This document shows positions 1,214-45,516 of a stretch of 64,000 nucleotides of DNA, one piece after another. The stretch lies in the IMG/VR virus record IMGVR_UViG_3300009314_000001, one strand, 5' to 3'. Made by a program: the position numbers and the translations under genes. This DNA comes from a virus. Its lineage: Duplodnaviria; Caudoviricetes. Numbering within the stretch: the stretch's first letter is position 1; every line of letters starts with the position of its first letter. The notes beneath the pieces were generated by a model. The model was not told the origin of the DNA. It ran no database searches and worked only from the letters and a program-made list of their open reading frames with translations.

Positions 1214-1879
1214 ATGTCAAAGATTTTCGGTATCGGACTTCCGAACACAGCTACAACATCGTTAGCCCATGCATTACGAAAATTAGGCTATATATGTTTA
1301 CATAATTCACCACAATGGCGTACTAAGATTTACCATGGTACTGTAAAACAACCTTACAGAGCACCGGAAGGTATGGAAGAATGGGATGCTATAACAAATT
1401 TTGGGGAATGGTTCTTTCCACAACTAGATTATGAGTATCCTAATTCCAAATTCATACTAACGCTACGACCTATAGAAGATTGGTTAAAATCAATCGAGAA
1501 ACTATTAACAAGATTCCAATTACGACTGATGGAACACAATAGAGCCCAACGAGCTGCAATCGAAATATTTGGTACCGGCGGATACCATGAGCATCGTTTA
1601 AGATATGTCTATGAACACCACAAAAAGTCAGTCATAGATTATTTCGAAGATACATCTCAATTGTTAATATTTAGTGAACCTTTTGGCTGGGAAGATTTAT
1701 GTTCTTTTCTAGATAAACCAATACCTGATATTCCATATCCATGGAAACATAGACAAAAATCTGTAGAACAACTGCTGAAAGAAAGCGAAGAACGCACGGG
1801 TTGGGTACCAAAATCTTGCACTCCTCAGAAAAAACGCTCTGTCAAATATAGAGAGGTTTCACCACAGGGTGGTGATTAA
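1214..1879 (+). CDS. sulfotransferase-family protein (Sulfotransfer_4-like)
   Basis: KIFGIGLPNTATTSLAHAL PAPS-loop-like motif, KFILTLRPIEDWLKS, GWEDLCSFL; start moved to ATG 1214 after AAAGGGG. Confidence 0.8.
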   Translation: MSKIFGIGLPNTATTSLAHALRKLGYICLHNSPQWRTKIYHGTVKQPYRAPEGMEEWDAITNFGEWFFPQLDYEYPNSKFILTLRPIEDWLKSIEKLLTRFQLRLMEHNRAQRAAIEIFGTGGYHEHRLRYVYEHHKKSVIDYFEDTSQLLIFSEPFGWEDLCSFLDKPIPDIPYPWKHRQKSVEQLLKESEERTGWVPKSCTPQKKRSVKYREVSPQGGD

Positions 1880-1914
1880 TTTTTCACTTTGGTTTGCTTT
1901 GGAGGTACCAAGCT

Positions 1915-2724
1915 ATGTTAGGTTCCATGCACACTTCTGACGTGCGCCGCTTCATCCCCCGCCTAGTTCACATCGGCGAAGCTCCGATCCAACGGAAGCA
2001 TTACAAAGATGCTCAAGGTGAACCAGGCAAACCTATAGATCTACTCGAGGATGCTGAGTACACCGTAAAAATACTCACATATCCACGCTTTAAACTTGAC
2101 TGGGGTCCAGTAGACCAATATAAGAAAGACAAATATCTACAATGGGTCAAAGACAACTGGGAAGACCACCTAACACCAAGAACTCCAGATACATTACCGA
2201 AGTCTTGGGATGACGAAATAAAATCTCTCACTTTCACTATAAGTAGCAACTATCATCACGGGATAAACCATTTCTCCCGTCTATTTGTATCAGAGTATAC
2301 CACTGAATATCGCTTTGATACAATAATTCGAGATCATTGCTTTGCAGTCGCTAGAGAAGCCATGAATGCGGCATTATATCTCCTAGCCGACTGCATCTAT
2401 GACGAAGAAAAGCAAAGTTGGGCGAGAGGTAAAAGAAAATGGGTACGTCAAATCCTAATGACTTACAAATTTTGGAGACTTCTCACCGGTCGTGGTAATG
2501 CTTGGTTCTACAGCGGTATACCAGAAATAGAAAGAACTCTTAAGGATGGATATTTAGTCAAAGGCGGTGTCGAATCATCAGACTATGCTGAAACAGTCCA
2601 GCTATACAGCAAAGTCCTAACGGACATTCGTGGGTGGGAAGAGCAACAAGAAAAGTTCTGGGCTTTTACTGCTGGCCCAAAGATTGAAGATACAGGAGAA
2701 AGTCCCGATAAGAAAGAGACGTAA
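1915..2724 (+). CDS. hypothetical protein
   Basis: Long ORF; GGAGG before ATG 1915. Confidence 0.7.
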   Translation: MLGSMHTSDVRRFIPRLVHIGEAPIQRKHYKDAQGEPGKPIDLLEDAEYTVKILTYPRFKLDWGPVDQYKKDKYLQWVKDNWEDHLTPRTPDTLPKSWDDEIKSLTFTISSNYHHGINHFSRLFVSEYTTEYRFDTIIRDHCFAVAREAMNAALYLLADCIYDEEKQSWARGKRKWVRQILMTYKFWRLLTGRGNAWFYSGIPEIERTLKDGYLVKGGVESSDYAETVQLYSKVLTDIRGWEEQQEKFWAFTAGPKIEDTGESPDKKET

Positions 2725-2989
2725 CTTTCTGAATTACTTTCTGAAGTTTGTTGTTGTATTTTGCCAAGACGTCTTCAGCACTTGGCTCTTCCTGGTGCAT
2801 CATAGCCGGGTTGTGAGTATAGACGGTTCTTAGTGTGGTTACACCATCTATTGTTGAATTCGTCTTGTGCATTACTTGTACTTGGATGAGTGGTAATTCG
2901 CTTGTTGGCGAATTCATTATACCAAGTACACGAACGATAGCCTCTGGCGGTGCATCCGCCAGAGTGAAGTCTTTTGTGAACCAGATCAT
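2666..2989 (-). CDS. hypothetical protein
   Basis: Start moved to MIWFTKDF to avoid overlap with the upstream gene. Confidence 0.55.
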   Translation of the reverse strand: MIWFTKDFTLADAPPEAIVRVLGIMNSPTSELPLIQVQVMHKTNSTIDGVTTLRTVYTHNPAMMHQEEPSAEDVLAKYNNKLQKVIQKVTSLSYRDFLLYLQSLGQQ

Positions 2990-2997
2990 CGTATGAT

Positions 2998-3288
2998 CTA
3001 ACGCTTCTTGGTAGTCCTGCGTATCGTGTTGTTTGATTCTACCATATAAGTAACTACTTGTTCGAACTTCTCGAAAGCGTCGAACATTGCATCCATAACA
3101 GCGTGTTTGGATGTAACTTTTACCACCTTTGGTAGTATCGTTCCACCTTTTGTTGTGTTCACACAATCCCGAGCAATTTGCTCTGCTTCTTCGGGATCGT
3201 CGCCGAGCCCACCAAAGAAAACACCTTGAAGCGTAATCTCATCCTTGTCTGTTTGAATTTTGGCGTAAGCTACCACGAATTTTTCCAT
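2998..3288 (-). CDS. hypothetical protein
   Basis: MEKFVVAYAKIQ... start after a purine-rich stretch. Confidence 0.65.
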   Translation of the reverse strand: MEKFVVAYAKIQTDKDEITLQGVFFGGLGDDPEEAEQIARDCVNTTKGGTILPKVVKVTSKHAVMDAMFDAFEKFEQVVTYMVESNNTIRRTTKKR

Positions 3289-3356
3289 GGTCCTTGTCCC
3301 TGTTCCCCTTCGTTCCATCAAAGTGCATCCGGTCGTCACTGGTCTCTCCTTTTTGA

Positions 3357-43773: not shown

Positions 43774-43789
43774 GACCAATCCTCCGCTG

Positions 43790-43834
43790 TATTTTTGTTC
43801 TGGAGGTGGAGTATTATCCCTGACACCAAAAATA
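43790..43834. promoter_or_regulatory. back-to-back CAAAAATA motifs between divergent genes
   Basis: Minus copy at 43790-43797, plus copy at 43827-43834 (4 nt before ATG 43839). Confidence 0.45.
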
Positions 43835-43838
43835 TTAT

Positions 43839-44066
43839 ATGAAAATCTGTATGATAGAATCAGCATCAGCTCCACAATTAATCAAAACACTGTGGAGTCC
43901 CGCTGTCGCTTACATTAGATATCCAAATGGAGAAATCTGGGAATATATTGTATACGACGACGCTGAACTACGATGGCTAATCAAGAAGTACGGTAGAAAT
44001 AAGGGACGACTAGCAAACAAACTAAAGAAGTATGAATCAAGACTAACTAACCCAGTCCCATTCTAA
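43839..44066 (+). CDS. small hypothetical protein
   Basis: 75-aa ORF. Confidence 0.6.
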   Translation: MKICMIESASAPQLIKTLWSPAVAYIRYPNGEIWEYIVYDDAELRWLIKKYGRNKGRLANKLKKYESRLTNPVPF

Positions 44067-44857
44067 TAAGTAACATACCTCCACAGCTTTTTTCTTCGGC
44101 ATCGTCGGCATAACGGTAATTTGGTTCTCTTACGTATCAACTCTGGTACAGTAATATCATCAAATACTGTGTACCCAGCATCCACTTTATAACTAGCACA
44201 GCATAAATAATACCGTCCATCATGACCAATCGGTATCCAATTTATAATATTACAAGAACGATAGTTTGGATGACCTGGAGGATTTTCGGTCTTAACATAT
44301 AAATCGTGTTCATAACCCGCCAATAACTCTTCAACCCCAACATTTAATTTTAGTAAAACAAATTCAAGACCATGTTCACTACAAAAATCGCGAGCTATTT
44401 CTTGTTCATGAACATTATACTTATGATGCAGCCAACGAACACATATTTTTGTTCTTTGTTGTGCTAAGAATCTATGTATATTAGCCATTACTAATTCAAA
44501 ATCGCCACCCCTATGATATATCCTATAAACATCAGGCGTCATTCCAGATAATGAAATATATATTATTCTAAAATTATTAAGAGAGTCTAGTTTTTCATCT
44601 GATAGAGGTAATGAAAAATTGGTACTCACGCAAGAATCAGTATCTTTAATCATATTAGAAACAGTTATAAACTCATCATGAAGTAAAGGCTCTCCGCCAT
44701 TATACCAATGTAAACAATATTGCTCCCCAAATCTTTCTATAACTTTTTCTACTATTTCTAAAGACATTTGTTCGTTAGATGGCGTATGAGTACTATTCCA
44801 ACAGAGAACACATCGTAAATTACAACCATCAACCAATTCAGGATTGATATATATCAT
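44063..44857 (-). CDS. radical SAM protein with twitch/SPASM-like C-terminus
   Basis: CNLRCVLC, YNGGEPLLH, STNF, C-terminal Cys cluster. Confidence 0.88.
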   Translation of the reverse strand: MIYINPELVDGCNLRCVLCWNSTHTPSNEQMSLEIVEKVIERFGEQYCLHWYNGGEPLLHDEFITVSNMIKDTDSCVSTNFSLPLSDEKLDSLNNFRIIYISLSGMTPDVYRIYHRGGDFELVMANIHRFLAQQRTKICVRWLHHKYNVHEQEIARDFCSEHGLEFVLLKLNVGVEELLAGYEHDLYVKTENPPGHPNYRSCNIINWIPIGHDGRYYLCCASYKVDAGYTVFDDITVPELIRKRTKLPLCRRCRRKKLWRYVTY

Positions 44858-45516
44858 ATCATCGCCATCCTTCGATCATTAATTCTAACATAAACATTTA
44901 TTAACCTCTCCAAAACAAACGGGATGGCAGGAAATTTTTCAAAGCCTGTTTGTTCCGTAAACGTTTCCGGCGTAGGATAGTCTACAAGCTCTCTCAGGAC
45001 TTCATATAATTCTTCATCAGTCACGATTAAATCTATAGCTGGTCTGAGTAAAGTAGTAACAAAATCGATATATACCTCTCTCCGTGCTATAAAATAATTA
45101 CTATAAATACATAGCTCTTCTTTATCGAAGGATGGTATATATGGAATAACACTCTGTTCTAGAAGTTTTTGAAGAATAATTTCAAAACCAGTTTTAACAC
45201 CTCTATAAGTATAGGAATGTTTATGTGGTCTTCCAAATTTGCCTTTTCGTTTTGGAGCTAATATATCATACTTTCCACGTTTTCGAACTCCATTTTGCAG
45301 TCTCTCGAAGTTAAAACCTCGAATTTTTCTATCAACTTTCCAAGAGAACACACCAAACCAATCACAATCTGAGCACTCTCCTTGGCCTACCAAATCACAT
45401 ATAATTCCACTCTCTAGATAAATATCCGCAATCTCATTGAAGTACGGAATAAAGCCCTCCAATAGAAACTTCCTCTGGAATCTTCTATAGTAGATCTGAT
45501 ATACTTTAATTCTCAT
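44854..45516 (-). CDS. putative glycosyltransferase-related protein (DUF4422-like)
   Basis: VYQIYY..., WFGVFSWK, YSNYFIA, FVLERL. Confidence 0.5.
   Translation of the reverse strand: MRIKVYQIYYRRFQRKFLLEGFIPYFNEIADIYLESGIICDLVGQGECSDCDWFGVFSWKVDRKIRGFNFERLQNGVRKRGKYDILAPKRKGKFGRPHKHSYTYRGVKTGFEIILQKLLEQSVIPYIPSFDKEELCIYSNYFIARREVYIDFVTTLLRPAIDLIVTDEELYEVLRELVDYPTPETFTEQTGFEKFPAIPFVLERLINVYVRINDRRMAMI

Follow-up and report, generated by a model that had tools for sequence, protein, structure and literature searches.

The stretch of DNA analysed here (the window, 64,000 nucleotides) carries a multi-enzyme glycan toolkit of about 15 scattered enzymes, whose predicted chemistry is the addition of a Kdo-type sugar, an amino sugar, sulfate and pyruvate to a glycan. 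The carrier is a marine megaphage exceeding 340 kb, from a clade distinct from cyanophages, and the genes form six small modules dispersed across 44 kb between its core genes. The enzymes are best explained as a soluble, horizontally acquired glycan-tailoring set. From their sequences, the predicted families cover ulosonic acid transfer, amino-sugar synthesis, sulfation and pyruvylation, and the set is supported as mostly intact. A toolkit of this kind had been noticed in the original prediction, and Pfam, profile and fold searches confirm it by backing most of the families. Its interpretation as anionic-glycan enzymes is upheld, but one GT-A paralog is a pseudogene and a GT29-like domain is unproven. 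The genes and their uncharacterised neighbours are as follows.

1196-1879, + strand: sulfotransferase, Sulfotransfer_4 (PF17784, E 4.6e-32, 112 bits)
1894-2724, + strand: uncharacterised 276-aa protein, directly 3' of the Sulfotransfer_4 gene
8723-9544, + strand: polysaccharide pyruvyl transferase 1 (PF04230, PS_pyruv_trans, E 7.3e-12, 46.2 bits)
19022-19873, - strand: polysaccharide pyruvyl transferase 2 (PF04230, PS_pyruv_trans, E 4.8e-9, 37 bits)
20738-21979, - strand: sulfotransferase (Sulfotransfer_2, residues 2-223; PF03567, E 1.1e-13) fused to a C-terminal orphan domain
21976-22734, - strand: uncharacterised 252-aa protein, in the same orientation as the sulfotransferase fusion gene and overlapping its end
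22814-23626, + strand: retaining beta-Kdo-transferase-like glycosyltransferase (profile, Foldseek and motifs)
23617-24504, + strand: radical SAM/SPASM enzyme (PF04055, E 2.5e-11; PF13186, E 4.9e-7)
30551-31258, - strand: probable sulfotransferase, Sulfotransfer_2-like (PF03567, E 8e-4, below threshold; PAPS motifs)
33727-34551, + strand: glycosyltransferase with a GT-A fold, from a mostly viral family that has no name (structure model, EDD motif)
35555-36667, + strand: DegT-family sugar aminotransferase, nearest PseC (PF01041, E 1.4e-80)
36667-37272, + strand: GNAT N-acetyltransferase, nearest PseH (PF13302, E 2e-11)
37260-38103, + strand: frameshifted GT-A paralog, a pseudogene or variable tract (homology split between frames)
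44063-44857, - strand: radical SAM enzyme (PF04055, E 1.9e-13)
44854-45516, - strand: putative DUF4422-like glycosyltransferase, GT-A type (Atlas features and structure)

Three sulfotransferases had been proposed. Two are recognised by Pfam, and the third, at 30551-31258, falls just below the cut-off (20.0 bits against the PF03567 gathering score of 22) but retains both PAPS motifs, a 5'-PSB-like K-S-G-x-T and a 3'-PB-like R-N-P-x-x-R-x-x-S; it also matches PHROG 21956 (function unknown). The start of the Sulfotransfer_4 gene is uncertain (GTG at 1001, ATG at 1196 or ATG at 1214), the JGI annotation giving 227 or 221 aa. The C-terminal domain of about 190 aa in the fusion protein had been called GT29-like, an assignment not borne out, as Pfam, phmmer against the PDB, a homologue search, tblastn against phages and jackhmmer/hhalign were all negative or insignificant. 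Cst-II/Maf-like motifs can be picked out in this domain by eye, and its hhalign comparison with the Maf-like family was insignificant. Neither uncharacterised protein has a match in Pfam, PHROGs or NCBIfam. The 276-aa protein has homologues in two relatives, G001 and G002, the G001 copy being about 2 kb away from a weak Sulfotransfer_2-like match; for the 252-aa protein no local homologue was found.

Both predicted pyruvyl transferases stand, each exceeding the PF04230 gathering score of 25.3. Pyruvyl transferase 1 is placed between the gene for a 929-aa acidic protein and the collagen-like fibre genes, and is uncalled in the JGI annotation of an identical contig. The two pyruvyl transferases have no significant match to each other, and the same holds among the sulfotransferases; the copies are therefore not recent duplicates.

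The gene described earlier as a KpsS-like GT-B (reading frame open from 22763; form on record 270 aa) taken alone has no significant Pfam match (PF05159, E 0.12). A profile built from 46 sequences, however, matches WbbB and KpsC in the PDB (E 1e-5), and the best 27 Foldseek matches of its AF2 model (pLDDT 90) are all retaining Kdo transferases, so that the assignment holds as Kdo-transferase-like. Q120xxxD124, H155-P156 and S194-N195 are invariant in the family. On the modelled fold, and with the QxxxD and HP motifs intact, the protein appears to resemble the retaining beta-Kdo transferases KpsC and WbbB, although it could use another CMP-ulosonic acid as donor. The likeness to KpsC/KpsS (GT107) and WbbB (GT99) thus covers the fold and the QxxxD Asp, HP and S-S/N motifs (PMC10148158). 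Unlike these enzymes, the phage protein is a lone 270-aa module with 12-19% identity to the solved structures, and its family is overwhelmingly viral. The start of the radical SAM/SPASM gene overlaps the end of this gene by 10 nt. No NCBIfam equivalog was found for the SPASM enzyme; its NCBIfam matches include many peptide maturases at low scores. Two radical SAM enzymes had been predicted, and both match PF04055 and carry CX3CX2C. The second (44063-44857) has C-terminal Cys clusters, and its gene begins within the last 4 nt of the DUF4422-like gene. The pair is encoded on the strand of the major head gene, some 2 kb downstream of it. The DUF4422-like call is a lead: a Pfam search is empty, but among the protein's neighbouring Atlas clusters PF14393 is present in 13-100% of the members, and structural comparison with those clusters gives TM 0.70-0.72.

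The claim of two GT-A-like paralogs holds in part. The protein at 33727-34551 has no Pfam match and belongs to a family of 686 representative clusters in which E130-D131-D132 is invariant; its model (pLDDT 89) matches SpsA (E 9e-7, TM about 0.5) and other GT-A enzymes. The second copy is a real paralog but is frameshifted: frame 0 ends at a stop at 37604 and homology resumes in frame +1. Seven assemblies showed three haplotypes (AA/AAA near 37505; TTT/TTTTT near 37596), none of them intact. All other toolkit genes are intact, and identical or nearly identical across independent assemblies. Between the two GT-A genes, the predicted aminotransferase and N-acetyltransferase were both recovered. 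The DegT gene (alternative start 35516) is 50-56% identical to actinomycete genes, and the GNAT ATG overlaps its stop codon. Against the NCBIfam models, the DegT protein scored 211 bits for PseC (cut-off 423) and the GNAT protein 36 bits for PseH (cut-off 93).

The glycan genes had been described as AT-rich and often opposed to the main strand, and both properties are seen. Their mean GC of 38.2% is below that of core genes (44.7%; Mann-Whitney p 1e-4) and that of other accessory genes (41.4%; p 0.004), and 8 of 13 lie on the + strand, against the main strand, compared with 6 of 56 other genes (Fisher p 3e-4). The toolkit genes are absent from the syntenic slots of four near-complete relatives, which makes them part of the flexible genome. 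Membrane segments are lacking in all the toolkit enzymes, and no flippase, polymerase, initiating transferase or exporter was found among the window genes scanned against Pfam. On its own the kit is therefore unable to produce a surface polymer and export it; its enzymes tailor, and they rely on host precursors.

The finding of several copies of each decorating activity was thought unusual, and such multiplicity is indeed rare, both among phages and within the clade. A tblastn search of 50,697 GenBank phage records found relatives of neither the Sulfotransfer_4 gene nor pyruvyl transferase 1; the Kdo-transferase-like gene had one relative, and the Sulfotransfer_2 domain had a relative only in Ralstonia phage phiRSL1. 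Among 14 related megaphage records, PS_pyruv_trans occurs in none, Sulfotransfer_2 in six, Sulfotransfer_4 in two and a CMP-ulosonate-synthetase-family gene (PF02348) in eight. A Maf/Cst-II-like protein is present in all five relatives with fetched sequence. In the relative G009, a compact island combines two sulfotransferases with Capsule_synth, GT9, two GT1, NeuB and FkbM methyltransferases.

Whether the glycan is placed on the virion or on the host surface, the choice left in the original prediction, is not decided by the window; the context of homologues would favour the virion. In five of six small-phage contigs examined, Kdo-transferase-like homologues lie between the major capsid and head-tail connector genes, in the same orientation as the structural genes; these are distant homologues (31-44% identity), not orthologues. 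One such locus, L177, reads capsid, MptE-like, GT2, Sulfotransfer_2, methyltransferase, Kdo-transferase-like, connector. At 28 non-redundant IMG/VR Kdo-transferase loci, the 5 kb upstream held capsid families in 8 and a portal in 5, and the 4 kb downstream held tail-completion in 9, gp10-like in 9, head-completion in 5 and connector genes in 5; a Maf/MptE-like protein was present at 22. A Sulfotransfer_2 relative of the window's enzyme occurs at 14 of 85 Kdo-transferase loci, and at L208 a tight operon of Sulfotransfer_2, radical SAM/SPASM and Kdo-transferase corresponds to the trio at 20738-24504. The capsid-to-connector position of these homologues thus favours a virion glycan. The small-phage cassettes share the Kdo-transferase-like, Sulfotransfer_2 and radical SAM genes with the window and have Maf-like and methyltransferase neighbours. 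The window differs in having six modules, with most genes on the opposite strand and none beside the capsid gene, and adds two pyruvyl transferases and the DegT/GNAT pair. Its own Kdo-transferase module lies away from the head genes, on the opposite strand, inside a flexible island.

Our leading, still tentative, reading is that the dispersed soluble tailoring modules act on host donors and most likely coat the phage's own particle proteins. Against it, no link exists in this phage between a toolkit enzyme and any virion protein, and AT-rich genes that vary between strains and oppose the main strand are classically typical of host-altering morons. In Che8 and other cluster F1 mycobacteriophages, phage glycosyltransferases are thought to glycosylate the phage's own capsid or tail proteins (Freeman et al. 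2023, as cited in PMC11256854 and PMC12619734); the likeness lies in phage-encoded enzymes and a proposed glycan on particle proteins. The hosts there are Actinobacteria, the glycosyltransferases are few and near the right genome end, and the citing papers report no sulfotransferase, pyruvyl transferase, Kdo-type transferase, amino-sugar or radical SAM enzyme. A search of the window's structural proteins turned up no Ser/Thr-rich acceptor tail, which counts against a particle glycan and is a further difference from the mycobacteriophages; a particle protein is here the proposed acceptor. With flagellin O-glycosylation (PseB/C/H/G/I/F plus Maf; pseudaminic or legionaminic acid) the window shares a PseC-like and PseH-like pair, though below the equivalog cut-offs, and related megaphages have the CMP-ulosonate-synthetase-family gene, NeuB (one relative) and the conserved Maf/Cst-II-like protein. 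No PseB, PseG, PseI, PseF or Maf-like gene was found in the window. A metagenome scan recovered no Maf-like partner for this phage's contig, though the contig may still carry one.

Remodelling of the host surface, in which the enzymes decorate lipid-linked intermediates of the host's LPS, capsule or exopolysaccharide, perhaps to cap or charge the chains, is possible but rather doubtful. The benefit would be a superinfection block, no re-adsorption of progeny to lysed cells, or altered grazing or aggregation. The substrates of KpsC/KpsS and WbbB are lipid-linked intermediates of capsule and O-antigen (PMC10148158), PF04230 and PF03567 members are polysaccharide enzymes, the genes are moron-like, and a kit with no export machinery would feed into the pathway of the host. 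This is also the usual view of marine cyanomyoviruses rich in glycan genes: S-SCSM2R, S-SCSM1 and P-SSM2 have up to 13 glycosyltransferases plus KdsA and KdsB, and large cyanomyoviruses have up to 22 cell-wall genes, KdsA and KdsB among them (PMC12801897). They resemble the window as large marine phages with many glycan genes of putative function in variable regions, but their sets are mostly glycosyltransferases and epimerases where the window has mostly decorating enzymes, the clades differ, and sulfotransferases have no occurrence in that paper (PMC12801897). The head-neck site of the small-phage cassettes, on the other hand, is not usual for morons and implies late co-expression with structural genes. 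Maf-like partners in flagellar systems are protein glycosyltransferases, which would also speak against this reading. Lytic infection would also leave little time for a decorated polymer to reach the surface.

It is unlikely that the modules are unrelated cargo with separate substrates (small molecules, peptides, lipids or nucleotides), some perhaps decaying, with no single pathway and no shared sulfated, pyruvylated glycan. The dispersal over 44 kb, the mutual dissimilarity of the pyruvyl transferases and of the sulfotransferases, and the pseudogene in all seven assemblies are consistent with it. Sulfotransfer_4 and radical SAM/SPASM members also serve natural-product and peptide pathways, and the DegT relatives are in actinomycetes, which are rich in secondary metabolism. 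These families, however, recur as tight operons elsewhere (L177, L208, the G009 island), a DegT gene flanked by two GT-A genes of one family is found again at L322, and the remaining genes are conserved intact. That the glycosyltransferases, aminotransferase, acetyltransferase and radical SAM enzymes decorate modified DNA bases to evade restriction is highly improbable: phage glycosyltransferases are known to build DNA glycans (PMC13326640), a Dam methylase lies inside the island, and core genes close by encode a dUTPase and a thymidylate-kinase-like protein, but known DNA-glycan clusters centre on a thymidylate-synthase-family hydroxylase/hydroxymethylase with GT-B enzymes (PMC13326640), PF00303 was found in just three relatives of 14, the two closest not among them, and in none of the window genes scanned, and the literature searched offers no precedent for a sulfotransferase, pyruvyl or Kdo transferase acting on DNA.

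For the virion coat, the genes, families, folds, motifs, accessory status and homologue neighbourhoods are established, and from these we infer donors, step order, acceptor and benefit. The enzymes would work in the infected-cell cytoplasm and take their donors from the host: PAPS, PEP, NDP-keto-sugars and either CMP-Kdo or a different CMP-ulosonic acid. DegT and GNAT together would yield an N-acetylated amino sugar for the GT-A enzyme to transfer, and the Kdo-transferase-like enzyme would attach an ulosonic acid in beta linkage, via an intermediate bound covalently to Asp124. The two radical SAM enzymes, both coupled in translation to a glycosyltransferase, may remodel a sugar, and the three sulfotransferases and two pyruvyl transferases would contribute negative charges. 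The likeliest acceptors are capsid, neck or fibre proteins of the phage, which would thus carry a strain-specific acidic glycan coat. What is new in this system, relative to the small-phage cassettes, is its dispersed layout in a megaphage and the presence of pyruvyl transferases.

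The 64-kb window comes from a marine phage of very large size; among its genes are those for a T4-type major head protein (phrog_138, E 2.6e-81), a portal and a large terminase. The head protein shares 73-89% identity with the best 80 of 168 IMG/VR relatives, many of which lie on contigs of 230-408 kb, and contigs as long as 340 kb were found to encode window proteins. Across the 11 kb compared, the window is 100% identical to a JGI contig of 289,811 bp. Megablast of 24 kb of the window against GenBank phages gave no match. Over the ~18 kb upstream of the window start, an AAA_33 kinase-like gene was the only match in the precomputed Pfam table.

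The original prediction of a dispersed kit for building, sulfating and pyruvylating a glycan included three sulfotransferase domains. Two of them were above the Pfam gathering threshold: Sulfotransfer_4 (PF17784) at 1001/1196-1879 with 112 bits, and Sulfotransfer_2 (PF03567) in the N-terminal 223 residues of 20738-21979 with 52.4 bits. The third, at 30551-31258, fell below the PF03567 threshold (20.0 bits against 22) yet carries both PAPS-binding motifs. These motifs generally resemble P-K-x-G-x-S/T (5'-PSB) and R-x-x-x-x-R-x-x-S (3'-PB); they read H-K-S-G-C-T and R-N-P-F-L-R-A-V-S in this protein, and N-P-K-T-A-G-F-S and R-N-P-W-D-R-F-A-S in 20738-21979. By eye, the C-terminal part of 20738-21979 (~190 residues) shows a hydrophobic-VGN motif followed by a small-residue/Gly-x-D motif, reminiscent of Cst-II/Maf-type enzymes. 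The 'GT29-like' domain predicted at this C-terminus was supported by no search. There was no match in Pfam (E <= 5) or by phmmer in the PDB (E <= 10), and no homologue among 5.8 billion proteins, by phage tblastn or by local jackhmmer; hhalign against the phage Maf-like family was insignificant (E 0.021, probability 2%). Sulfotransferases of marine phages have been noted previously, with 'function unclear' (PMC10580990). Literature searches found no paper on phage sulfotransferase with pyruvyl transferase, nor on phage sulfotransferase with jumbo phage.

Both predicted polysaccharide pyruvyl transferases exceeded the PS_pyruv_trans (PF04230) gathering threshold of 25.3 bits, as had been expected. 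The one at 8723-9544 scored 46.2 bits over profile positions 1-270 of 280, and the one at 19022-19873 scored 37.0 bits over positions 59-279. No gene is called at 8723-9544 in the JGI annotation of the identical contig, though the ORF passes the Pfam threshold. The two proteins have no significant pairwise similarity, and the same holds for the sulfotransferases; neither set thus consists of recent duplicates.

The gene at 22763/22814-23626 (+ strand), earlier called 'KpsS-like GT-B', missed the gathering threshold of PF05159 Capsule_synth (12.2 bits against 20), and its resemblance to retaining beta-Kdo transferases stood on profile, model and motifs. At least 139 homologues were found, mostly in viral metagenomes; about one in ten carry PF05159 above threshold, as does the homologue in the related megaphage record G009 (45.8 bits). 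A profile of 46 family sequences matched WbbB and KpsC in the PDB at E 1e-5. When the AlphaFold/AF2 model (pLDDT 90) was compared with the PDB by Foldseek, the top 27 matches were KpsC, WbbB or KrkA only, with E down to 1.8e-7 and TM 0.43-0.55. The protein is thus predicted to adopt the modified GT-B fold characteristic of retaining beta-Kdo glycosyltransferases (GT99/GT107). These enzymes are defined by QXXXD (Asp nucleophile) and HP motifs (PMC10148158). Q120xxxD124, H155-P156 and S194-N195 are invariant in the 46-sequence alignment, and Q120/D124 and H155/P156 line up with Q-V-E-D-D and H-P of WbbB in the HMM alignment. E62, at least 90% conserved in the family, is a candidate for the glutamate general base expected in the N-terminal half (Glu66 in KpsC).

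Two GT-A-like paralogs had been proposed, of which one is intact. The gene at 33727-34551 has no Pfam match and is part of a family with 686 representative clusters. Its model (pLDDT 89) has a GT-A fold, matching SpsA (E 9e-7) and GlcAT, GTA/GTB and WrtF (E 1e-6 to 1e-5), with TM ~0.5, as well as GT2-like AFDB clusters. With E130-D131-D132 invariant in the family, the model points to a Rossmann-like GT-A fold with a DxD-type acidic motif. Since nucleotidyltransferases of the same fold also match, we infer the transferase activity. The paralog at 37260 is broken by a frameshift: frame 0 stops at 37604 and homology resumes in frame +1 to ~38103. Across seven independent assemblies, two short homopolymer tracts, AA/AAA near 37505 and TTT/TTTTT near 37596 (window 37500-37600; loci L168-L173), occur as three haplotypes, and the in-frame combination occurs in none of the seven. 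This variation could represent decay, or on/off switching by slippage like that of bacterial LOS genes.

DegT (35516/35555-36667) and GNAT (36667-37272) were both above the Pfam gathering thresholds, which confirmed the predicted aminotransferase-family and N-acetyltransferase assignments. The best NCBIfam model for DegT was PseC (211 bits against a cut-off of 423), and the sole one for GNAT was PseH (36 bits against 93). The two genes are thus similar to the pseudaminic-acid pair but are not its equivalogs; PseB, PseG, PseI and PseF were not among the window genes scanned. On an unrelated MAG contig binned as Paceibacterota (L322:5192-8499), a DegT gene 55% identical to that of the window has GT-A genes of the window's unnamed family on both sides, and this arrangement mirrors the GT-A, DegT, GNAT, GT-A layout of the window. 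Wedged between the GT-A gene and DegT, on the opposite strand, is a Nal1/trypsin-like protease (34499-35503), 33% identical to a paralog at 14189-15715; homologues of these proteases occur in relatives.

The assignment of 44854-45516 as DUF4422-like rests on its Atlas neighbours, in which PF14393 is present in 13-100% of members (TM 0.70-0.72 to those clusters); Pfam gave no DUF4422 (PF14393) match. The two predicted radical SAM enzymes, at 23617-24504 and 44063-44857, were borne out: both passed the PF04055 threshold and have C-x3-C-x2-C near the N-terminus. A SPASM domain is present in 23617-24504 and not in 44063-44857, and neither enzyme matched an NCBIfam equivalog.

Composition and strand were compared between the glycan genes and the rest of the window. 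Mean GC of the 13 glycan genes is 38.2%, against 44.7% for core genes (p 1e-4) and 41.4% for other accessory genes (p 0.004). The + strand carries eight of the 13, compared with 6 of the 56 other genes (p 3e-4). The glycan genes are thus AT-richer and many run against the main strand, in agreement with the original prediction. All window proteins were compared with four near-complete relatives (G001, G002, G007 and G008). Synteny of the core genes is kept with them, and every glycan gene is absent from the corresponding slot in all four, with only distant paralogs elsewhere in those genomes. Among 14 related records, Sulfotransfer_2 was found in 6, Sulfotransfer_4 in 2, the Kdo-transferase family in 1 and PS_pyruv_trans (PF04230) in none; the GT-A family gave one weak match. 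The 50,697 GenBank phage records contain almost no relatives of the glycan genes. Such multiplicity of decorating activities is unusual among phages and in this clade, as had been supposed. Taken with the confirmation of the families, the composition, strand and absence from relatives indicate that the toolkit is real, accessory, compositionally foreign and unusually rich.

Other features of the window were recorded alongside. PHROGs and NCBIfam gave no match for 1894-2724, 21976-22734, 32419-33621 and 42757-43875. The gene at 38288-39748 is a clamp loader according to PHROGs; its precomputed Pfam matches (RuvB_N, AAA, AAA_assoc_2, MgsA_C) point to an MgsA/RarA-type ATPase. A GC-rich 929-aa protein (5866-8655), rich in Gly, Glu, Asp and Pro, has no family match and is conserved in relatives over about one third only; it may act inside the virion, be ejected from it, or serve as an acceptor. 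Scans for sigma-70 promoters and terminators around the glycan genes were no better than shuffles, and the CAAANATA motif showed no overall enrichment. The motif TTTAAC-N15/16-GTAACA occurs three times (18305-18332, 24761-24787 and 28997-29023) against 0.08 expected. Two copies are immediately upstream of a conserved GC-rich 451-aa gene and an AAA-ATPase gene, with no association to glycan genes; the motif may be a phage-specific promoter. Shine-Dalgarno motifs of the GGAG/AGGAG type precede many genes (e.g. 19941, 27600-28943, 35555 and 47398-48993), which speaks against a host from the Bacteroidota. For DegT, the nearest homologues of marine origin lie in Gammaproteobacteria MAGs of oxygen-poor waters, a weak lead to a gammaproteobacterial host; its closest cellular homologues are scattered across many phyla and hence indicate no clear host.

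Several of the toolkit genes are tightly coupled. The end of the Kdo-transferase-like gene and the start of the radical SAM/SPASM gene share 10 nt; a 4-nt overlap joins the DUF4422-like gene to the second radical SAM gene, and DegT and GNAT overlap at an ATGA. No toolkit enzyme contains a hydrophobic segment of membrane-spanning length. Nor did the scanned genes of the window include a flippase, polymerase, initiating phosphoglycosyltransferase, exporter, nucleotidyltransferase or PAPS-synthesis gene. These results point to a cytoplasmic tailoring kit that must rely on the host for CMP-Kdo, NDP-sugars, PAPS and PEP. Features new to this case are the dispersed layout in a megaphage of >340 kb, two pyruvyl transferases, a PseC/PseH-like pair and two pairings of a glycosyltransferase with a radical SAM enzyme.

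The genomic setting of homologues was studied in other phages. In five of the six long contigs examined, all five from small HK97-type phages, the Kdo-transferase homologue lies between the major capsid and head-tail connector/head-completion genes, co-oriented with them. At one such locus (L177) the order is capsid, MptE-like, GT2, Sulfotransfer_2, methyltransferase, Kdo-transferase-like, connector. Relatives of the Kdo transferase are encoded on 231 IMG/VR stretches. In 28 non-redundant loci, the 5 kb upstream contain capsid families (8), portal (5), methyltransferases (~9), PF01973 (6), Sulfotransfer_2 (3) and GT9 (3). The 4 kb downstream contain tail-completion gp17 (9), gp10-like (9), head-completion (5) and connector (5) genes, plus tail-tube genes. 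By local iterative search, a Maf/MptE-like family was present in 22 of the 28, and 14 of all 85 Kdo-transferase loci have a relative of the window Sulfotransfer_2, in many cases as an immediate neighbour. At L208, another Kdo-transferase locus, Sulfotransfer_2, radical SAM/SPASM and Kdo transferase form one overlapping operon; the trio matches window 20738-24504, the radical SAM proteins being only 21% identical. These neighbourhoods argue that the families act together on one ulosonic-acid-containing glycan. In the small phages the cassette would be expressed alongside head and neck proteins.

Related megaphages carry further candidate parts of such a pathway. A Maf/Cst-II-like protein with V-G-N-G-P-S and I-F-G-x-D-M motifs was found in all five relatives with fetched sequence. 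It is ~320-370 aa long with a Pro/Lys-rich N-terminus, and falls into the family of the MptE-like genes beside Kdo-transferase genes in small phages.

Maf/Cst-II-like genes in the megaphage records G001, G002, G006, G007 and G008, in list order (locus:coordinates)
L117:5345-6346, Maf/Cst-II-like gene
L087:10608-11564, Maf/Cst-II-like gene
L128:11887-12855, Maf/Cst-II-like gene
L149:10705-11805, Maf/Cst-II-like gene
L161:15-953, Maf/Cst-II-like gene

A KdsB/NeuA-family cytidylyltransferase is encoded in 8 of the 14 related records; of the 6 records with a completeness of 90% or more, 5 have it. G009, a 341-kb phage, has a 14-kb island with two sulfotransferases, Capsule_synth, GT9, two GT1, NeuB and two FkbM methyltransferases. 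The island is located at C1:144000-158500 (L158:14116-19925, L159:3-8021); its sulfotransferases are Sulfotransfer_2 and Sulfotransfer_3, a cytidylyltransferase lies at 158057 and a Volactin-family gene is found mid-island.

Decoration of the particle, one of the two targets first proposed, is the simplest reading of these neighbourhoods, and by analogy it would extend to this megaphage. Placement of glycan genes in or beside the structural module, a trait of virion glycosylation, is found in the small-phage homologues. In the window the modules are dispersed and most are on the opposite strand. The DUF4422-like/radical SAM pair is the only module near the head gene (2 kb downstream, same strand), and the others lie between fibre, nucleotide-metabolism and ATPase genes. 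The structural proteins of the window have no Ser/Thr-rich acceptor tails. A Maf-like partner was not found in the window, and a metagenome scan for a Maf-like gene did not return the contig of this phage. Remodelling of the host surface by the glycan genes is a strong rival, and is the usual reading for such genes in marine cyanomyoviruses (PMC12801897). A DNA-glycan role is unlikely, because the thymidylate-synthase-family enzymes that anchor known DNA-glycan systems (PMC13326640) are absent from the closest relatives.

For particle decoration, a specific route can be put forward only tentatively, and we consider it rather doubtful. The clade, like many small phages, might O-glycosylate its own particle by a flagellin-like route. 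A conserved core of Maf-like transferase and CMP-ulosonate synthetase would be followed by strain-specific Kdo extension, sulfation, pyruvylation and radical-SAM sugar editing, giving variable, strongly anionic virion 'serotypes'. If this is true, sulfated, pyruvylated glycoproteins exist on bacteriophage particles, for which we know of no demonstration; phage particles are usually regarded as bare protein. Virion glycosylation has been shown for a few mycobacteriophages only, where it is described as a capsid glycan shield (PMC11256854, citing Freeman et al. 2023).

For glycoengineering, the enzymes offer new soluble sulfotransferases, pyruvyl transferases and single-module Kdo transferases. 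Should the target be the host surface, the toolkit would make this lytic phage an unusually rich case of surface conversion. On abundant marine phages, a coat bearing sulfate, pyruvate and Kdo could alter particle charge, stickiness to marine gels and particles, and decay rates. Such an acidic coat could also alter recognition by hosts and grazers, and virome purification.
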